A stretch of DNA of 64,000 bases from Planctomycetota bacterium (lineage in GTDB: Bacteria > Planctomycetota > UBA1135 > UBA2386), in assembly GCA_965228735.1 (NCBI GenBank), contig OZ245838.1:6688001-6752000 (forward strand), given 5' to 3'. The translations under genes and the position numbers were made by a program. Positions 25,619 to 55,667 of this stretch are shown here, in pieces (the first letter of the stretch is position 1; each line of letters starts with the position of its first letter). Below the pieces are notes generated by a model. The model worked only from the letters and a program-made list of their open reading frames with translations. It was not told the origin of the DNA and searched no databases.

Positions 25619-26719
25619 GTGACCGTCAGCCCCTCGACCGAACTGAGCGCGATCGTCGTCAACTGGAACGGCGCGGAGTACCTGGCTGGGTGCGTCGATG
25701 CGCTGCTCGCGCAGGAGCCGCCGCCCGCCGAGATCCTCGTCGTCGACAATCACAGCACGGACGGCTCGCGCGAGCTCCTCGCCGAGCGCTATCCCGCGGC
25801 CGAGTTCCCGACCGTGCGCGTGATCGACAGCGGGAGGAACGGCGGGCCGTGCTTCGCGCGCAACGTCGGCATGCTTGCGGCGCAGAACGAGCTGTGCCTG
25901 CTCATCGACAACGACGTCATCCTGCGGCCGGGTGCGCTCGCCGAGCTGCGGCGCTGTCTCGAGAGTGACCCGCGTTGCGCGATGGTGCAGGCGCGTTCGG
26001 TGTGCGGCGACGATGAGTCGGTCGTGCATTACGACGGCGGTGATCTGCACTTCCTCGGCACGCTCGTTCTGCACAACTGGTATCGGCCGCTCAGTGAGGC
26101 CGCGGACCACGACGGGCCCGTCGGCGCGGCTGTGGCGCTCTGCTTCCTCACGCGGAAGAGCGCCTACCACGAGATCGGTGGCTTCGACGAGAACCTGTTC
26201 ATCCTCTACGAGGACAACGAGTTCTCCTACAAGCTGCGGATGCGCGGCTACACGATCCGGCTGTGCGCCGCCGCCGTCTGCGTGCACCTCGCGGGGACGG
26301 CGGATCTGTCCATTCGGGGTGCTGGGGCCGGGGCGCGGTATCCCGGGCGACGCACCTATCTGCACAGCAAGAACCGTTGGTACGTGCTGCTGACCTGCAT
26401 GCGTTGGCGCACGCTGCTCCTCACGATCCCGGCCCAGCTCGTCTACGGTGCGGTGTATGCGGCCTTCGGGCATCAGCGTGGGCACGTGTCCGATTGGTGG
26501 CGCGGCAAGTGGGAGCTGTTCAAGTTGCTGCCGGCGGCCGTGCGCGCGCGGTCGGCGGCGCAGCGCGGTCGCACCGTGCCGGATCGTGAGCTGCTCACGA
26601 GCGCGGCGATGACGCTCAACCCGGGGCTCGCGGAGCGCGGGTTCAAGGGCTGGCTGAGGCGCAGTCTGGATCGGTTCTTCGCGGGTTACTGGCGGCTGCT
26701 GCGAGGGCTGTGTGGCTGA
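25619..26719 (+). CDS. Glycosyltransferase family 2
   Basis: VVNWNG, VVDNHSTDGS and GGFDENLFILYED motifs. Confidence 0.9.
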   Translation: MTVSPSTELSAIVVNWNGAEYLAGCVDALLAQEPPPAEILVVDNHSTDGSRELLAERYPAAEFPTVRVIDSGRNGGPCFARNVGMLAAQNELCLLIDNDVILRPGALAELRRCLESDPRCAMVQARSVCGDDESVVHYDGGDLHFLGTLVLHNWYRPLSEAADHDGPVGAAVALCFLTRKSAYHEIGGFDENLFILYEDNEFSYKLRMRGYTIRLCAAAVCVHLAGTADLSIRGAGAGARYPGRRTYLHSKNRWYVLLTCMRWRTLLLTIPAQLVYGAVYAAFGHQRGHVSDWWRGKWELFKLLPAAVRARSAAQRGRTVPDRELLTSAAMTLNPGLAERGFKGWLRRSLDRFFAGYWRLLRGLCG

Positions 26720-27653
26720 GCGCACGCGCGGGTCCGGCGGCGAGGTCGCTGTCCTGCTGCTGAACTTCCGGCGGCCGGAGCTCACGCTGCGTTGCCTGGA
26801 CGATCTGCTCGCGGTCGTTGGGGTCGAGCTCGCCTTGCTGGTGATCGACAACGGTTCGGGCGACGGCAGCGCGGAGCAGCTGCGCCAAGGAATCGCCGAG
26901 CGGGCGGGTGCGAGTGACGCGACGATCGAACTGCTCGAGCTCAGAAGCAACCTCGGCTTCGCCGGCGGCATGAACCGCGGCATCGCGTGGGCCGGCGAAC
27001 GGGGGCTGCCGTTCTGCCTCGTGCTCAACAACGACGTGCGCGTGCCCGCGGCCGCGATCGCGCCGCTTCGCGACGTCTTGCAGAACGATCCGCGCGTCGT
27101 GGCCGTCGGCCCGACGATGGTCACGCCCGACGGTCGCGTGTGGGCGGAGGGCGGCCGCACCCGCTTCGGGCCGAACGCGCTGACGCTGCGGCACCAGGGG
27201 GCCGAGCCGCGGCCACGAGAGCACGGGCCGGAGGCGGTCGAGTTCCTGCCCTGCGCGTGCGTGCTCTTTCGGACCGCGGCGCTGCAGGCCGTCGGCGGGT
27301 TCGACGAGCGCTACTTCATGTACTGGGAAGACGTCGATCTCTGCACGCGCCTGCGCGAGCGCGGCGGTCGCATCGTCTGGCTGCCCTGGACCCGCATCGA
27401 ACACGACAGCGGCGGCTCCAGCGGCGGCGGCAGATCCCGGCTCCGCAAGTTCCTCATGGCGCGCTACGCCGTGCGCTACCTGCGCGACCACGGCCGCCCG
27501 TCGACGTGGGCCGGCTGGCTGCTCTTCGACATCCTGCTCTGGCCCCTGACCCTCGTCACCAACCCGACCACCGCGATCGCCAAACTCCGCGGCACGTTCG
27601 CCGGCCTGACCGACCGAACGATCACGAGCAAGGACATCGACGCCTGGCAGTGA
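26712..27653 (+). CDS. Glycosyltransferase family 2
   Basis: IDNGSGDGS, NLGFAGGMN and FDERYFMYWEDVD motifs. Confidence 0.9.
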   Translation: MAERTRGSGGEVAVLLLNFRRPELTLRCLDDLLAVVGVELALLVIDNGSGDGSAEQLRQGIAERAGASDATIELLELRSNLGFAGGMNRGIAWAGERGLPFCLVLNNDVRVPAAAIAPLRDVLQNDPRVVAVGPTMVTPDGRVWAEGGRTRFGPNALTLRHQGAEPRPREHGPEAVEFLPCACVLFRTAALQAVGGFDERYFMYWEDVDLCTRLRERGGRIVWLPWTRIEHDSGGSSGGGRSRLRKFLMARYAVRYLRDHGRPSTWAGWLLFDILLWPLTLVTNPTTAIAKLRGTFAGLTDRTITSKDIDAWQ

Positions 27654-27672
27654 CACCGCCGCCCCTTGATCG

Positions 27673-27756
27673 GGGCCCCGTACGGAACCTGGTTCGTTCT
27701 GCCGACGTCGTCAACCGGGCCCCGTACGGAACCTGGTTCGTTCTGCCGACGTCGTC
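27673..27756. repeat. Two identical 40-bp direct repeats (REP copies) upstream of the RAYT gene
   Basis: GGGCCCCGTACGGAACCTGGTTCGTTCTGCCGACGTCGTC at 27673-27712 and 27717-27756. Confidence 0.9.
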
Positions 27757-27907
27757 GACACTCCCGTCTGGGCTTTGTGTGCCCGGCTGAGTTCGAGGAC
27801 AACTTCCATGCTGCAGGAGCAGCGTAACCTGGCTGTCCACTCCGCCGGGGGAAGGTCAGGTTGATCGCGGGGAGAGAAGCGCGGCGCGGAGGTCGGCATG
27901 CCAGCAC

Positions 27908-27930
27908 GAACCGCGTACCGTACGCCGGGT
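27908..27930. repeat. REP copy immediately upstream of the RAYT gene
   Basis: GAACCGCGTACCGTACGCCGGGT. Confidence 0.8.
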
Positions 27931-27990
27931 CACGTCGGGATTTGCGTGTGATCTCAGGGTCTGCGTTCCACTTGGGGAGGAGGTGACCTC

Positions 27991-29019
27991 ATGGTGCGAA
28001 AGCCGCGAGCGGATGGGCCCGGCAAGTGGTTTCACGTGGTGAACCGAGGCGTTTCCCGGCGCTCGGTCTTCGAGAACAGGGCAGATGTAGAGTTCTTCCT
28101 GGACGGTGTTCGCGATGTCGTTGAGCGCGGTTGGCTCGAGGTGCACGCCTATGCGGTGCTGACGACCCACTATCACTTTCTCGTCCGCAGTCCGGCTGCG
28201 GAGCTGTCTCGGGCGATGCATCACGTTCAGCTGCGCTACGTCCGATACTTCAATAGGACCCGTCGGCGGGACGGGTCTCTGCTGCGCGGCCGGTTTGGCT
28301 CGAAGCACGTGGACTCGGTTCGCTACCGGCTTGCCGTCGTCGGCTACATCGACACCAACGCGCCCGCGGCGGGCCTCGCGCGGTGTGCGTCCGACTATCC
28401 GTTCGGTAGCGCAGCCGCATACCTGTCGGGTGGCGGTCCGGAATGGCTCTGCCGTGACTGGGTCCACGACGAACTCCGGCTCTGCACAGGCGAGGTCGCA
28501 CCGTCGGGAACAGCGTATGCAGATGTGTTCGCGCGTGGGTTCACGGATGCCCAGCGCGCGATCGTGGAGCGCCGGTTGGCGTTGCCGGACGCGGCGAATG
28601 ATCCGATCGACGAACTGATGCGGGGTGGAGCACTGGCGCTTCGCGAGTGGTTTCACAAGAAGGCCCTGCTGGCTGACGGCACCAAACCGGGACTTCCGAT
28701 CGCGGCACCCGAAGAGATCCAGCGAGCGCTGGCCGTCGAGTTGCCGGCAGCGATCGAGCCGGTCGTGAAGCACCTCCGGCAGGGCTCCGCCGATTGGCGC
28801 GCGGCGCTCACAGCGCTGCTTCTGCGTGAGGCATGCGGACTGACGCAGGCGGAGATTGGCGAGCGGCTCGGACGGTCGCGGGAGACCGCCAGGAGTCTGG
28901 TTGCCCGAGCGCGTCGGGTGGCGGCCGAGCACCCTGCGATCGGCGACTTCGCCGCGGCGGCTATCCATCGCGCGTTGGCTGCGACGTTCCCGCCACCAGG
29001 ACACACTTCGGCAGACTGA
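27991..29019 (+). mobile_element. REP-associated tyrosine transposase (RAYT; Y1/HUH, IS200-like) with C-terminal HTH
   Basis: FHVVNRG, AYAVLTTHYHFLV (HUH), RYFN...GRF, GYIDTN (catalytic Tyr position), DYPFGS; C-terminal LTQAEIGERLGRS HTH; strong SD GGAGGAGG; flanked by REPs. Confidence 0.9.
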
Positions 29020-29075
29020 ACCAGGTACCGTACGGCCAAGGTACCGTACGGCCACAGCCGGGTTCAGTACCGCCA
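29008..29075. repeat. REP cluster downstream of the RAYT gene, including a half-copy of the intron-target repeat
   Basis: TCGGCAGACTGAACCAGGTACCGTACGG is inverted relative to 27678-27705 (25/28). A second AGGTACCGTACGGCCA follows. GGGTTCAGTACCGCCA (29060-29075) matches 55649-55664 at 15/16. Confidence 0.85.
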
Positions 29076-29096
29076 TGATCGGACGGCTTGCAGCCG

Positions 29097-30527
29097 TCAG
29101 GGGAGTTGGGTCAGGAGCGTCGTGTTGTCCGGGGTCTGGCGCAGGAGGTCGACGACGTGGTCGAGGCGTTGGCGTGAGGTGAGGGGGGCGAGGTGCTCGC
29201 GCAGGCGGCGGAGGGCCTGGATCTGGGATTCGGGGAGCAGGGTGTCTTCGCGGCGGGTGCCCGTGCGGAGGACGTCGAGGGCCGGGGCGACGTGTTGGTC
29301 GGCGAGGTCGCGGTCGAGGACGATGTCGCTGTTGCCGCGGTTGTGGAACTCGTCGAGGATCGCGGTGTCGAGGCGCGAGTCGGCGTCGGTGATCGCCGTC
29401 GCGATGAGCGTGAGGGAGCCGCCCTCTTCGCACTTGCGCGCCGCGCCGAACAGGCGTTTGGGCCGCAGCACGGCACCGGCGTCGAGGCCGACGCAGATGA
29501 GGCGGCCGGTCGGGATGATCTCGAGGTTGAGGGCGCGGACGTAGGCGGTCAGCGAGTCGAACAGCAGAACGACGTCCTCGCCCGCCTCGACCATGCGCTG
29601 GGCGCGCGCGAGCGTCATGTCGGCGAGCGCGACATGGCGCGCCGGCGGTTGCTCGAACGTCGTCGCGACGATGTCGGCGTCGCCGCTGCCCGCCGCGTGA
29701 ATGCGGCGCCGGATACCCGTCAGTTCCTCGGGCCGCTCGTCCAGCAGGCACATGTGGACGAACAGGTCCGGGTGATTGAGCCGCAGCGCCACGGCGATCT
29801 CCTCGAGCAATCGGGTGCGGCCGGAGCCGGGCGGCGCGGCGATGAGGACGCGCTGGCCGAGCCCCCAGGGCGCGAGCAGGTCGATCGCGCGCAGGGCCAG
29901 CGACGCGTTCTCGTGGTCCAGCCGCAGGCGGTCGGTCGGCAGGATCGGCGTGCGAGCGCCGAATGGCACGCGCCGGCGCTGCGTCGCGATGTCGCCGCCA
30001 TTGACCGAGTCGACGTGCAGCAGCGCGAAGAAGTTCTCACCCCGCCGCGGCGGCCGCACTGGGCCAGCCAGTCGATGCCCGCTCTTGAGGTTGAGGCGGC
30101 GCACCTGACTCGGGCTCACGTAGACGTCGTCGGGACCGGGCTCGAAGTCGTTGCGGATCGAACGCAAGAATCCGAAGCCGTCGGGGAGCACGTCGAGGAC
30201 GCCCTCGGCCCAGCCGAGTCCCGAGCGCTCGAAGCGGTGCTGCAGGATCGCGAACACGAGCTCGCTCTTGCCGAGGTTGGGAACGACGTCGAGGCCTTCG
30301 TCGTGCGCGAGGTCGAGCAGTTCTTTGGCGGAACGCGCCTGCAGCGCGGTGATGTCGCCGCCGTGGTCCCGCCGCGCCTGCTTCAGCAGTTCTTCGCGCT
30401 CCTCGGCGCTCATGGTCTCCAGGTCCGTCCCGTCGGATCGGCCAGCCGCCGGCTGCCCGTCGGCCTGCGGCCCGCTCGCACGGGACCCTTCTCGGCGCGG
30501 GGCGGGGTTGCGGGACGAGTCGTGCAC
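29097..30527 (-). CDS. rho: Transcription termination factor Rho, divergent copy
   Basis: EGVLDVLPDGFGFLRS, DDVYVSPSQVRR, DERPEE, LFDSLT and PKRLFGAARKCEEGGSLT motifs; Walker A reads APPGSGRT. Confidence 0.85.
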   Translation of the reverse strand: MHDSSRNPAPRREGSRASGPQADGQPAAGRSDGTDLETMSAEEREELLKQARRDHGGDITALQARSAKELLDLAHDEGLDVVPNLGKSELVFAILQHRFERSGLGWAEGVLDVLPDGFGFLRSIRNDFEPGPDDVYVSPSQVRRLNLKSGHRLAGPVRPPRRGENFFALLHVDSVNGGDIATQRRRVPFGARTPILPTDRLRLDHENASLALRAIDLLAPWGLGQRVLIAAPPGSGRTRLLEEIAVALRLNHPDLFVHMCLLDERPEELTGIRRRIHAAGSGDADIVATTFEQPPARHVALADMTLARAQRMVEAGEDVVLLFDSLTAYVRALNLEIIPTGRLICVGLDAGAVLRPKRLFGAARKCEEGGSLTLIATAITDADSRLDTAILDEFHNRGNSDIVLDRDLADQHVAPALDVLRTGTRREDTLLPESQIQALRRLREHLAPLTSRQRLDHVVDLLRQTPDNTTLLTQLP

Positions 30528-51203: not shown

Positions 51204-53546
51204 ATGTCCAGCACCACTCCTGAAACGAAGACCGCGACCGAGCCCGAAGGCCCGCAGCAAGACCCGATCGTCGACGAACAAACGGGTGTGTATGGCTGGT
51301 TCCGCCGCAACCAGAAGCTGCTGCTCTACACGGTCGGCATGTTCGTGCTCGTGTTCTTCTCGGTGAGTGGCCCGATGCTCGCCCTGATCAACGATTGGTT
51401 CGCGCCGCACGTCGAGCGCCCGGCCATCACGGTGGGCGGCGAAGAGGTCAAGCTGGAGGCGATGGACTACCAGGTCGGCGAGCAGATCGCGAACCGGCCC
51501 GGGGCGCTGAGCTTCGTGCTGCCGATCATCAGCACCGGGGACAACGGCCGTTCGGAAGCGACCGAGGTCTACGCGATCCTGCGCCGCGCGGCGATCACCG
51601 AAGGGCTCGGCATCTCGTTCGCCGAGGTCGACAAGGCGATCGCGACGCGCCTGAAGCAGAGCGCCGGCCAGATGACGTCGGAGACGGCGCTCGCGGCCCA
51701 GGCGGGCTTCAACTCGCTCGCCGCGTTCCGCAACATCGTGGGCGAGGCGATGCGCATCGGCACGCTGATCCACCTGCAGACGCTGGCGCTCGACAGCTCG
51801 GACGCGAGCGTGCTCGAGGACGTGCTCGGCGACCGCGAGAAGGTCAAGTTCAAGGTCGCGACGTTCGACGAGGCCAAGCTCGCCGAAGAGCTCGAAGCGG
51901 CCGGCAACGCGAGCTACGAGGATCTCACGGCCTGGGTCGAGGAGAAGACCACGCTCGAGAAGCGCCAGATGGATGTCCTCGGCGGCAACGAGGTCGCGCT
52001 CGAGATCGCCGGGCTCCTGCTCGCCGACTTCGATCGGACGCAGTGGGAGGACAAATACCTCGCCGAGTTCGAGATCGCGGAGGAGGAGCTGACCCGGCTC
52101 TACAACACCAACCGCGAGCGCTTCAAGCAGGAGGACGAGACTTACCGCGCGCTCGAGGACGAGGGCGTCGCGGAGGAGCTGACGAAGCAGCGCGAGGCCC
52201 AGGAGGTGCTCGTGCAGATGTCGGCCGACATCCGCGAGAAGCAGGCCGAGTTCACGAAGGCCGAGGACGACGCGTTCCGGCAGGCCAACGAGGACGCGTT
52301 CGCCGCGGCGAACGCCGTCACGGAGGCGAAGGCCAAGCTCGAAGCGGATCCCGACAACGAGGACCTCAAGAAGGAACTCGCGGACGCCGAGCTCGCCAAG
52401 ACGCAGGCCGACAACAACCGCAAGGCCGCCGAGGAAGCGCGCGACCAGAAGATCGCCGCGTTCGACTTCTTCGCCGCGTTCACGGAGCTCGCGAGCGACG
52501 AGAACGGCCTGAAGAAGGGCGCCGTCACGAAGAAGGTCGAGCCGCGGCGCGATGCCGAGGCGCTCAAGGACCTCGACTCCGAGGAGCTCGGGCTCGGCAC
52601 CTGGGAGCAGGCGGTGGTCGCGACCTATCTGCGCAAGGTCGGCCAGCTCGGGACGAGCCCGGCCAACACGGACAAGGCGTCGTTCCTCTACCGCGCGACG
52701 GACCTGCTGCTCGAGCCGCTCAAGCCGCGCGAGGAGCTCGAGCCGCTGCTCGCCGGGGCCTACTACAAGGAGAAGGCCAAGGAGCAGGCGGAGGAGAAGA
52801 AGGCGGCCTTCGAGGCTGCGCTGTTGCGGCTCGCCAAGGCCAAGATGCCCGACAGGGTCGCGGAGATCGAAGGTCAGCGCGAGACTCGCATCGAGGAGCG
52901 GTTCACCGAGTGGAAGACCGAGATCGAAGCCGACATCGAGCACGCCAAGGACGTGATCGCGAAGGCTCGCGAGGGCACGATCGCGCACCAGGACTGGCTC
53001 AAGGAGCTCGCCCGCCTCGAGGCCGAGCTCGGCATGGCCGAATCGAAGCGCGAGGAGTTCGGCACCGCGGTCGGTGACGAGATCGACAGCGAGATCGCCG
53101 AGGCCGCGCAGGAGTTCCACGCCGCCGTGCTCGACGAGGCCGCCGCCGAAGCCGGCTTCGTGGTGCAGGAGATCGGGCCGTTGCCGCGCGACGTCGCGCG
53201 CAGTCCGCGCTTCGACAAGAAGTACGACAAGACGGCCGTCTTCCTCTACCGCTCGCACGCCGAGCTCGAGGACGGGGATTCGACCGGCCTCGTCGAGGAC
53301 ACCGCCGAACGCCGGCTGCACTGCGCGGTCGTCACGGGCGTGATGCCGCTCGAGCCGTCCGACGTCCGGCGCGCCGAATTCGTTCGCGCCAAGAAGGGCG
53401 CCGCGAGCGGCTTCTCCGCGTTCGACAGCTACGCCTCGGAGCGCGCCTACACGGCCCAGAGCCAGGCGTTCACCCTGCCGGCCCTCGAAGAGCGCTACGC
53501 CGTCGAGCGCCCGGTCGGCAAGCAGGCCGAACCGAGCGACGGCTGA
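51204..53546 (+). CDS. Membrane-anchored acidic helical protein, possibly a PpiD/SurA-like chaperone
   Basis: WFRRNQK plus an N-terminal TM helix; long acidic coiled-coil; GC3-rich codon usage like neighbouring genes. Confidence 0.6.
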   Translation: MSSTTPETKTATEPEGPQQDPIVDEQTGVYGWFRRNQKLLLYTVGMFVLVFFSVSGPMLALINDWFAPHVERPAITVGGEEVKLEAMDYQVGEQIANRPGALSFVLPIISTGDNGRSEATEVYAILRRAAITEGLGISFAEVDKAIATRLKQSAGQMTSETALAAQAGFNSLAAFRNIVGEAMRIGTLIHLQTLALDSSDASVLEDVLGDREKVKFKVATFDEAKLAEELEAAGNASYEDLTAWVEEKTTLEKRQMDVLGGNEVALEIAGLLLADFDRTQWEDKYLAEFEIAEEELTRLYNTNRERFKQEDETYRALEDEGVAEELTKQREAQEVLVQMSADIREKQAEFTKAEDDAFRQANEDAFAAANAVTEAKAKLEADPDNEDLKKELADAELAKTQADNNRKAAEEARDQKIAAFDFFAAFTELASDENGLKKGAVTKKVEPRRDAEALKDLDSEELGLGTWEQAVVATYLRKVGQLGTSPANTDKASFLYRATDLLLEPLKPREELEPLLAGAYYKEKAKEQAEEKKAAFEAALLRLAKAKMPDRVAEIEGQRETRIEERFTEWKTEIEADIEHAKDVIAKAREGTIAHQDWLKELARLEAELGMAESKREEFGTAVGDEIDSEIAEAAQEFHAAVLDEAAAEAGFVVQEIGPLPRDVARSPRFDKKYDKTAVFLYRSHAELEDGDSTGLVEDTAERRLHCAVVTGVMPLEPSDVRRAEFVRAKKGAASGFSAFDSYASERAYTAQSQAFTLPALEERYAVERPVGKQAEPSDG

Positions 53547-53573
53547 GCGCGGCGTGGTGGCGGTACCGAACCC

Positions 53574-55565
53574 TTGCGCCAGGCGAAGCCTGGACGGGAG
53601 AAATCATGACCTGACAGGAATGAGAACCCCGTATTGGAGTCCCGCGGGTGACGAAACCCGCCCGGCGAAGGCTAGCCACCAGCCGGAAGCGAGTCTTGCG
53701 TGGCGACCGGGTAACCGCCGCTGCGAAGCGTAGACAGCGAGGATGTGGGCGGCGCGACTGAGCCCCGAAAGTACCGACAGCGAGAGAGCCGACGTGGTGG
53801 GTTCATCGGAAGGCAACATGGAAGGGCCGCAACCGGCTTGGCCCGGAAGTCTCTCCGGGGTCCTGAGAACGACCGCACGCATCCATCGGACTCCCCAGGA
53901 ACCTGGGATCCCCTCGATTGGTCCGATCGTCAACTCCGGCTGGGGCCCGGAAACCAACTCTCCAGGGCCGCGACGTCGTGTCCGCGTCGGTGCCGTCAAG
54001 GAATCCGGACACACGGCCGGTACCGCCGAGCGAAGGAAACGAAGCGACGCGGGACGCCAACGAGGGAGTCGGAGTGCGTCATAGTACCAAAGAGTCCGGG
54101 GAACCCGCCCCACGGGGACCCGGCGGAGGGAAGGGCGTCACCGGCGACAAGGAACCGCTGGACGGACCGACCACGGAGACGACGGGCTCCGAGCAGGTCT
54201 CCACGAAACTCCGGCGGGTAGCGGAGCTGGCGAGGCAGCGACCAGACCTGGTCCTGACCACACTGGCACACCACATGGACATCGCGCTTCTGCGGGAGGC
54301 GTATCGCCGCACGCAGAAGTCCAAAGCTCCTGGTGTCGACGGCGTCACGGCTCGCGACTACGAGCAGGATCTCGAGGGCAACCTCGCGGACCTGCACGAA
54401 CGCGCGAAGTCAGGGCGCTATCGCGCACCACCGGTCCGGCGCGTGCACATCCCGAAAGGGAAGGGTGGCACGCGTCCAATCGGAGTGCCGACGCTGGAGG
54501 ACAAGGTCTTGCAGCGGGCGGTGACGCAAGTGATGGAGGCGGTATATGAGCAGGACTTCTTGGACTGCTCGCACGGCTTCCGTCCCGGTCGCTCGCCGCA
54601 CACGGCACTGGAATCGCTTTGGAAGCATGCGATGTCGATGGGTGGCGGCTGGCTGTTGGAAGTCGACATCCAAGGTTTCTTCGACAACCTGGAGCCGACC
54701 CATCTGCGAGCGATCCTCGACCAGCGGGTGCGCGACGGAGTGTTCCGTCGACTGATCGACAAGTGGCTGAAGGCGGGGGTGCAGGAGGACGGTGCGCTGC
54801 ATCGCTCTCGCAAAGGCACCCCACAAGGAGGCGTGATTTCGCCGCTGCTGGCGAACATCTATTTGCACGCAGTGCTGGACCGTTGGTTTGTCGAGGAAGT
54901 CAAGCCGAGGCTTGCCGGTCGCGCGGAGTTGGTCCGCTATGCGGACGACTTCGTGATCCTGTTTGCCGTCGAAGCCGATGCACGTGCGATGTCGTCGATC
55001 CTGGCCCAAAGGCTCGGGCGCTTCGGCCTCACACTGCATCCGGACAAGACCCGGTTAGTCCGCTTCCAACCGCCCGAAGACGGCGCGGCGGGGAGCGGCA
55101 CTTTCGACTTCCTGGGCTTCACCCATCACTGGTCACGCTCCCGGCGCGGCCGATGGACCGTGCAGCGGCGCACCACACGACACGTCGTGACCCGTACCCT
55201 GACTGGGCTACGGGATTGGTGCCGTCGCAATCGGCACGACAAGGTCCGCGTCCAGTACTCCACCCTGTGCTCGAAGCTACGGGGGCACTACCTCTACTTC
55301 GGCGTGACCGGCAACTCTGCTGCGTTACGTCGCGTATGGTACGAGGCCCGTCGCATCTGGCATCGGTGGCTGAGCCGGCGCTCGCGGGCGGCCTACATGT
55401 CGTGGGCCCGCTTCGAGCAACTGCTGCGTGCATACCCGCTTCCTCCGCCCCGGCTGACCCGGTCGGTCTACGCAGCGAGCCCTTGTCGCTGACGAGCCGG
55501 ATGCGTTAGCCGCGCACGTCCGGATCTGTGGGAGCCCTGGGGGGAGACCCCCAGGGCCACCCGGC
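53574..55565 (+). mobile_element. Full-length group II intron (1992 nt, IIB-like)
   Basis: 5' end TTGCG. Domain V GAGCCGGATGCG...CACGTCCGGATC (55494-55526). Domain VI with bulged A at 55559, 7 nt from the end. EBS2 GTACCG (53771-53776) and EBS1 GGGTTC (53799-53804). Boundaries are fixed by the interrupted repeat. Confidence 0.93.
54275..55492 (+). CDS. ltrA: Group II intron reverse transcriptase/maturase without endonuclease domain; true start may lie about 100 nt upstream
   Basis: KAPGVDG, RPIGVPTLEDK, SHGFRPGRS, GTPQGGVISPLLANIYLH, RYADDF (54938-54949), FDFLGF and LRGHYLYFG (domain X). Confidence 0.93.
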   Translation: MDIALLREAYRRTQKSKAPGVDGVTARDYEQDLEGNLADLHERAKSGRYRAPPVRRVHIPKGKGGTRPIGVPTLEDKVLQRAVTQVMEAVYEQDFLDCSHGFRPGRSPHTALESLWKHAMSMGGGWLLEVDIQGFFDNLEPTHLRAILDQRVRDGVFRRLIDKWLKAGVQEDGALHRSRKGTPQGGVISPLLANIYLHAVLDRWFVEEVKPRLAGRAELVRYADDFVILFAVEADARAMSSILAQRLGRFGLTLHPDKTRLVRFQPPEDGAAGSGTFDFLGFTHHWSRSRRGRWTVQRRTTRHVVTRTLTGLRDWCRRNRHDKVRVQYSTLCSKLRGHYLYFGVTGNSAALRRVWYEARRIWHRWLSRRSRAAYMSWARFEQLLRAYPLPPPRLTRSVYAASPCR

Positions 55566-55667
55566 GCTTCGAATCCGCCACCCGTCCGATTCCGCAACCC
55601 CGGTTCCCACCTGCCGTGCCGCCGTGTGGCAGGTGGCGGATTCGAAGCGGGTTCGGTACCGCCAGCC

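Follow-up and report, generated by a model that had tools for sequence, protein, structure and literature searches.

Analysis of a 64,000-nucleotide stretch (the window) of a 7.19-Mb genome revealed a group II intron whose ten genomic copies are all inserted at the same bond of a dispersed hairpin repeat, REP-A, between GAACC(C/T) and G. The repeat presents the intron's target in both orientations, and G5 and G6 of this target, the second and third bases of IBS2, are changed in 37 of 67 arms on the lagging-strand template versus 5 of 66 arms on the other strand (p = 1.8e-9). The explanation that best accounts for these results, to which we assign a probability of roughly two in three, is that the intron retrohomes into REP-A in a fork-coupled manner, that a transposase spread the repeat and that selection has favored escape through IBS2.

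Results

The intron is assigned to class E and pairs with its target through EBS1 and EBS2

The intron (Table 1) was recognized by its ribozyme core (RF02005, 123.5 bits) and by an intron-encoded protein (IEP) that matched TIGR04416 with 343.9 bits (cut-off, 300). Profile searches detected no endonuclease domain in the IEP. The intron is assigned to class E by a 33-nt domain V that folds with a pentaloop, like that of the R478 intron, and by pairwise IEP identity over about 375 amino acids (52% to an IEP from an R. etli Mim1 plasmid, matched by strain and not by accession, and 41% to the R478 IEP). A 5-nt loop in domain V is given as a trait of classes IIE and IIF in the available part of PMC3753933. 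The class labels of S.ma.I1 (plasmid R478), Cl.be.I2 and the R. etli Mim1 intron were taken from the supplement table of PMC4244168. Class C (IIC) identity was ruled out by the presence of EBS2 and by insertion inside a hairpin loop. Across 44 distinct related introns, EBS2 and IBS2 covary, with a mean pairing score of 3.68 versus 1.98 after shuffling (2000 shuffles, maximum 2.56; a few rows with doubtful boundaries were kept), and the present intron scores 6/6. Inspection by eye revealed no column covarying with the +1 base that could represent EBS3. The hits of a search for rRNA primer motifs were fuzzy and were set aside.

The tenth copy carries GAACCT as IBS1. Eight copies are full length (six identical and two with one shared change), and two are interrupted, being split by two other multicopy IS-like elements (G000:C1:340496-341793, 342149-343573 and 6552503-6553807). 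The near-identity of the copies points to recent mobility. The contig depth of the intron was about ten times that of its flanks in four runs, and no junction skipping the intron of the occupied site was found among the contigs of these runs, an assembly form that drops rare variants. The ends of the intron are non-canonical (window 53574-53578 and 55559-55565), with TTGCG in place of GTGCG at the start and ...GC in place of ...AY at the end; the G041 intron starts with TTGCG as well. A second group II intron, unrelated (43% IEP identity) and single-copy, is located at G000:C1:7171963-7173750, and its 3' end does not lie in REP-A. The 780-aa ORF located 5' of the REP-A intron (window 51204-53546, plus strand) has no Pfam or NCBIfam match.

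Table 1. Features of the intron, its targets and the transposase locus (window coordinates)
Feature	Position	Strand	Remarks
Two direct REP-B copies	27680..27739	+	Upstream of transposase gene; left-hand inverted repeat
Further REP-B copy	27908..27923	-	Upstream of transposase gene
Predicted HUH/Y1 tyrosine transposase, 342 aa	27991..29019	+	HYH 60-62, Y119, C-terminal HTH
Two tandem REP-B copies (one truncated, one full)	29018..29054	-	Right-hand inverted repeat of transposase gene
Empty intron target	29059..29075	-	IBS2 CGGTAC, spacer T, IBS1 GAACCC, +1 G
5' exon, first 16 nt of occupied REP-A arm	53558..53573	+	On lagging-strand template
IBS2 / IBS1 of occupied arm	53561-53566 / 53568-53573	+	
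Group II intron assigned to class E, 1992 nt (TTGCG...ACCCGGC)	53574..55565	+	One of 10 genomic copies
EBS2 (GUACCG; DNA GTACCG)	53771..53776	+	6/6 complementary to IBS2
EBS1 (GGGUUC; DNA GGGTTC)	53799..53804	+	6/6 complementary to IBS1
Longest ORF with RT/maturase	53918..55492	+	YADD at 54938; start is that of the longest ORF
Domain V (33 nt, 5-nt loop) and short domain VI	55494..55565	+	Bulged A at 55559
3' exon	55566..55633	+	Remainder of left REP-A arm (55566-55580), then 53-nt doublet spacer
Right REP-A arm, complete 31-nt hairpin	55634..55664	-	Second empty perfect target

The empty targets belong to a high-copy intergenic hairpin repeat

The first-pass annotation had singled out an unoccupied perfect target beside the transposase gene and another in the right arm of the intron's host repeat. 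Its reading of the first site was exact: the minus strand at 29075-29059 reads TGGCGGTAC-T-GAACCC-G, with IBS2, IBS1 and the +1 G as described, and the distance from the Y1 stop codon (TGA, 29017-29019), given as about 40 nt, measures 40 nt. The second empty target was likewise located correctly, the minus strand at 55664-55648 reading TGGCGGTAC-C-GAACCC-G with the cut site at 55649/55648. The word "perfect" holds for IBS1 and IBS2 of the 29059 site but does not extend to its surroundings. Here only the 5' half of a REP-A arm is present, truncated and joined to two copies of REP-B, a sister repeat; past +1, its 3' exon differs from that of the occupied site, and the hairpin is missing. Five partial REP-A halves of this kind were identified.

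The 16-mer of the 5' exon has three exact matches in the window (53558-53573, occupied, and the two empty sites) and ten matches with up to three mismatches, compared to 1.58 expected. The genome-wide count of the 13-mer, for which the annotation had called, amounted to 87 versus 0.3-1.7 expected from Markov models, far above chance. The intron follows 9 of these 13-mers and G follows the other 78; since all empty copies carry this G, the +1 base is uninformative. The 29059 site is an ordinary member of a real repeat family, one among 78 empty matches, and the special status granted to the two sites has to be given up.

REP-A is a 31-nt hairpin (z = -3.4) with the target motif as its 5' half. 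The genome contains 133 arms, which include 59 inverted doublets, 53 of them with a 53-nt spacer once introns are removed. Each doublet offers the target in both orientations, 84 nt apart. In agreement with the expected intergenic enrichment of the motif, 131 of 133 arms lie outside genes as delimited by our own crude gene caller. With its extragenic inverted doublets, fixed spacer and high copy number, REP-A corresponds to REPIN/BIME-type doublets. The spacers are constant in length, but their similarity is only about 40%; they contain a conserved CAA around positions 15-17 and a mirror TTG around 37-39. Two intron-occupied doublets, G000:C1:1603914 and 6838625, have different flanks and an identical 53-nt spacer, the sole identical pair among the 53; the pair may have arisen by gene conversion among the intron copies or because the doublet moved as one unit.

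REP-A was absent from the 40 relatives searched, and no sister strain carrying it was found. A metagenome scan returned 27 loci, of which 11 were 99.5-100% identical to the present genome and the others chance-like; a viral scan returned three chance-like loci.

The repeats that bracket a TIRYT-like transposase gene share a core with REP-A

The gene beside the 29059 site, annotated at first as a RAYT, is single-copy by tblastn. A PF01797 search of the genome gave no match at E 0.01, although hmmscan and tblastn find the gene. The deduced protein contains HYH at 60-62 and YIDTNA, which reads YIDxNP or YIDxNA in homologs, and a C-terminal HTH at 274-309 (PF08281 and PF04545 over the cut-off, HTH_23 below). 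A canonical RAYT/REPtron of Groups 2 and 3 was rejected, the score against NF047646 (REP_Tyr_transpos) being 49 bits with a cut-off of 80. The repeat is not of the canonical RAYT type either: it has no GTAG foot, and its core is (G/A)TAC-N-GWAC-S-N-GKTWC. Judged from its HUH and Y motifs, its C-terminal HTH and the bracketing inverted repeats, the protein instead fits a TIRYT, or TnpA-Y1 subclass 2.1-like, enzyme.

REP-B, of which 175 arms with at most one mismatch occur genome-wide, brackets the gene (27680/27724 on the plus strand, 29018 on the minus strand), and repeats are placed likewise in the closest homologs viewed, where inverted repeats with the same core lie on both sides. The core TAC-N-GWAC-S-N-GKTWC is common to REP-A and the gene-bracketing REP-B. 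Transposase homologs were found in 22 of 91 family genomes. Eight of the ten genomes with the closest homologs contain 63-245 core copies, the two exceptions have their own variants of the flanking repeat, in 23 and 110 copies, and the remaining genomes have at most 14 core copies. Repeat and transposase covary across these genomes, which are kin, so that no p value is given. The tie between the target family and the transposase locus, which the annotation had proposed, is thereby borne out across the 91 genomes by the common core and by a high copy number found only with the closest homologs. REP-A was likely spread by the neighboring TIRYT-like transposase, which would act on the repeat.

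The proposed enrichment of the motif near the transposase gene did not emerge. Within 100 kb of the gene, 7 full REP-A arms were counted where 3.7 were expected, a weak clustering without clear concentration, and the nearest lies 25 kb away. In a genome of the same genus (G002, locus L010), a Y1 gene is located between the same glycosyltransferase and rho genes as in window 26712-30527, but inverted; identities are 48% for Y1, 77% for rho and 71% for the glycosyltransferase. This arrangement may reflect an inversion between the repeats of the gene or an independent insertion.

Most intron copies lie on the lagging-strand template

The replication origin was placed near 4.57 Mb (GC-skew minimum at 4,570,541, dnaA-like motif at 4,568,708) and the terminus near 1.25 Mb. 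The strand bias that the annotation suggested looking for is real: nine of ten introns lie on the lagging-strand template. Among perfect arms, 9 of 24 on the lagging-strand template are occupied versus 1 of 58 in the other orientation (p = 3.6e-5), two occupied doublets with identical spacers possibly representing one event. Both empty sites named above, 29059 and 55648, are in the seldom-used (leading-template) orientation; of the 78 empty sites, 17 lie on the lagging-strand template. The 29059 site is probably intact because the strand that it faces is seldom used by the intron. The 29059/60 junction was empty in all three runs with bridging contigs (run X16 had no coverage there); these contigs match the window base for base and probably derive from the same strain, so they document the empty state and do not constitute a population survey. 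At 55648/49, none of the contigs listed extended over 31 letters on each side of the junction. The polymorphic insertion predicted at these sites is therefore unsupported, both being on the disfavored strand. None of 45 REP-B arms with a near-matching IBS1 is used by the intron.

IBS2 bases are changed mainly on the strand that holds most intron copies

The excess of G5/G6 changes on the lagging-strand template was observed in both replichores (21 versus 3 and 16 versus 2), the pattern flipping with the replichore, and all six possible substitutions occur. Target positions other than G5/G6 revealed a slight rise (13/737 versus 4/726), and non-target positions were symmetric (38/1206 versus 38/1188). 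No rise was seen at the mirror positions C9/C10 and C26/C27 in the opposite arm. Of the 58 empty arms on the lagging-strand template, 43 are imperfect targets; the other strand has 8 such arms among 65 (p = 1.7e-12). Occupancy followed the state of IBS2: 9 of 26 lagging-template arms with intact IBS2 contain the intron versus none of 41 with changed IBS2 (p = 7e-5), and GG is intact in all ten occupied arms. In asymmetric doublets, the mutated arm is the lagging-template arm in 32 of 34 cases. For doublets between co-directional genes, the bias follows replication in 14 of 14 cases and transcription in 6 of 14.

The change C26>T was seen in six lagging-template arms, each with a G5/G6 change; stem pairing is restored in two of them.

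Repeats without the intron lack the strand bias

In REP-B of the same genome, no lagging-template excess was found at the homologous bases. The same three bases are kept in 123 of 128 copies in G013 and in 88 of 96 copies in G069. In G003 and G068 they vary without strand bias (11/26 versus 10/26 and 11/29 versus 13/28, respectively), as determined in 20 regions per genome covering 52 and 57 of about 83 and 103 arms. Arms in relatives were oriented by 20-kb skews, which were correct in 352 of 359 windows of the present genome; an impression of strand bias in intron-free G003, gained from 3-kb skews, disappeared with the 20-kb skews. No group II IEP over the cut-off was found in G013, G069, G003 or G068, assemblies that are 82-94% complete and in which an intron could be missed. 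In G054, 16 of 76 copies have the tested prefix, and the genome is too fragmented to orient. The repeats of these relatives lack the outer stem of REP-A and are imperfect controls.

Other introns in repeats

A different intron (56% IEP identity, EBS1 GAAACG) was found in G081, with one assembled copy inside a 169-copy repeat that flanks G081's own transposase. G081 is an independent second case of an intron in such a repeat. In a quick tree, this intron groups with two non-REP introns, and most of 80 relatives from other taxa have unrelated targets where boundaries are readable. A lineage of REP-specialist introns was rejected on these grounds; the targeting looks like repeated retargeting. 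A search for palindromic targets in five other genomes yielded 7-28 matches compared to 7-15 in the control. The class E relatives L062, L087 and L136 lie in a tandem repeat, a GGTACCWGGTACC palindrome and a CT microsatellite, respectively.

Discussion

These results are consistent with a model in which an endonuclease-less class E intron inserts at one fixed bond of REP-A, probably by base-pairing to the single-stranded lagging-strand template at the replication fork. Such fork-coupled retrohoming is proposed by analogy with RmInt1, which, according to the accessible portions of the respective papers, prefers the lagging-strand template (PMC8914252) and needs EBS2 pairing (PMC4075523). Selection, either on the host or on the repeat in its role of replicator, would then have favored IBS2 mutations that keep the intron out and so eroded the lagging-template arms; the bases concerned border the transposase core. 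It is likely that the intron drove this erosion of its targets. On balance we favor the view that the intron erodes its own target family in a replication-strand-specific manner, that it parasitizes doublets dependent on the TIRYT and that escape proceeds through two IBS2 bases.

Several points weigh against the erosion reading or fit it incompletely. It is derived from one genome, G081 being too fragmented for a strand test. Simple escape does not explain the near-confinement of changes to G5/G6, because IBS1 changes should block homing too; some IBS1 bases vary in the repeats of relatives. The present intron copies are nearly identical and thus recent, yet the 37 fixed substitutions point to a long period of exposure; remnants of older introns were not found in the genome. 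The part of PMC3753933 at hand reports that class E/F introns splice in vitro without the EBS2-IBS2 pairing, whose role in their homing is a suggestion.

The same asymmetry could arise from damage rather than selection if aborted reverse splicing nicked lagging-template targets and repair or conversion left resistant alleles that persist. The same strand and sequence specificity would follow, no fitness cost would be required at dozens of separate intergenic sites, and the C26>T changes that accompany G5/G6 changes may reflect patch repair. This account is rather unlikely, as the changes lie 11-12 nt away from the insertion bond and not at it, GG is retained in every occupied arm, and the full range of six substitutions is more readily explained by independent mutation than by copying from a small number of donors. 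It is improbable that the Y1 transposase itself makes the asymmetry by cutting the single-stranded lagging-strand template just 5' of the TAC core, the intron exploiting the perfect arms that remain. The mutated bases do lie directly outside a core conserved across genomes, and IS200/IS605-type Y1 enzymes are described as acting on the lagging-strand template in the available section of PMC6006769; however, REP-B, the actual bracket of the gene, is without such a bias, and the four intron-free genomes with close transposases are conserved or strand-neutral at the homologous bases.

Lagging-strand templates are exposed as single strands, and the mutated bases fall within a GGTACC palindrome, which would favor ordinary strand-specific mutation, transcription bias or palindrome avoidance, with the intron's use of the repeat being incidental. 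These processes are very improbable causes and are already largely refuted by the equal counts at non-target positions (38 and 38), by the mirror positions C9/C10 and C26/C27, by the loss of G from a G-rich strand and by the co-directional doublets, all 14 of which follow replication. A further reading concerns the site beside the transposase gene, which with its perfect IBS1 and IBS2 might be a live landing pad for which strains are polymorphic; one of the ten insertions did use the same orientation. The occupancy of that strand (1 of 58), the missing 3' half of the arm and the empty junctions in all three bridging runs, apparently of the same strain, make this quite improbable. Fork-coupled retrohoming with escape through IBS2 remains the preferred explanation.

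Because the doublets offer the same target on both replication strands, about 60 loci record the strand and the bases required by the intron. Should the intron be the driver of the erosion, this is a case of targets resisting a group II intron, and the role of EBS2-IBS2 in class E/F homing, an open suggestion in the consulted portion of PMC3753933, becomes testable. The repeats would then be evidence from nature, in vivo, that class E homing is governed by EBS2-IBS2. They would also represent hotspot erosion in a bacterial form, with the opposite strand as an internal control. More generally, past intron invasions could be detected from a shortage of perfect targets on the lagging-strand template. 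The results also tie the little-studied TIRYT clade to high-copy REPIN-like families.

Comparison with known systems

The class E introns S.ma.I1 of R478, Cl.be.I2 and that of R. etli Mim1 resemble the present intron in their IEP, 33-nt domain V and the possession of EBS1 and EBS2, and likewise have no detected endonuclease domain. The target differs, being here a 133-copy intergenic hairpin repeat, whereas most close relatives fetched have unrelated targets; use of REP-A therefore represents retargeting and not a class trait. RmInt1 (class D, target ISRm2011-2) shares the lack of an endonuclease, a multicopy mobile target and a preference for the lagging-strand template that is not absolute, the other strand being used occasionally, as far as described in the available text of PMC8914252, in which no mention of strand-specific target mutation was found. 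In contrast to that target, REP-A is non-coding, measures 31 nt and occurs in both orientations, which provides a built-in strand control.

The TIRYTs and TIRtrons (PMC3733652), equivalent to TnpA-Y1 subclass 2.1 (PMC6006769), share with the present system a long Y1 protein with a C-terminal HTH and bracketing inverted repeats from a dispersed family arranged in dimers. Compared with the accessible descriptions, the present repeat lacks GGGGWSAS and forms families of 63-245 copies with fixed-spacer doublets. Quentin et al. report no REP-like sequences near subclass 2.1 genes in the excerpt available (PMC6006769), and the available portions of both papers contain no intron use of the repeats. 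Our searches, which left subscription journals mostly outside, found no literature on introns homing into REPs or on target erosion; the parts of Waldern 2020 (PMC7306698) and PMC12584367 at hand do not mention either.

Class C (IIC) introns, which insert after terminator or attC hairpins according to the portions seen of PMC12584367 and PMC7306698, have an intergenic hairpin-associated insertion in common with the present intron. The latter differs in its six-base EBS1 and EBS2, in inserting inside the hairpin loop and in discriminating by sequence, the near-matching REP-B arms never being used. IS elements that target REPs are known already: ISPpu9, ISPpu10, ISPa11 and ISPsy8 have a REP family as their sole landing site, as does the present intron, and a P. 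putida group II intron is REP-associated in only 2 of 9 cases (PMC1525189, available in part). Here the mobile element is a retroelement that relies on RNA-DNA pairing, not a DNA transposase or recombinase. The relation between this repeat family and its intron is a variant of known behavior with an unusually clean evolutionary signal.
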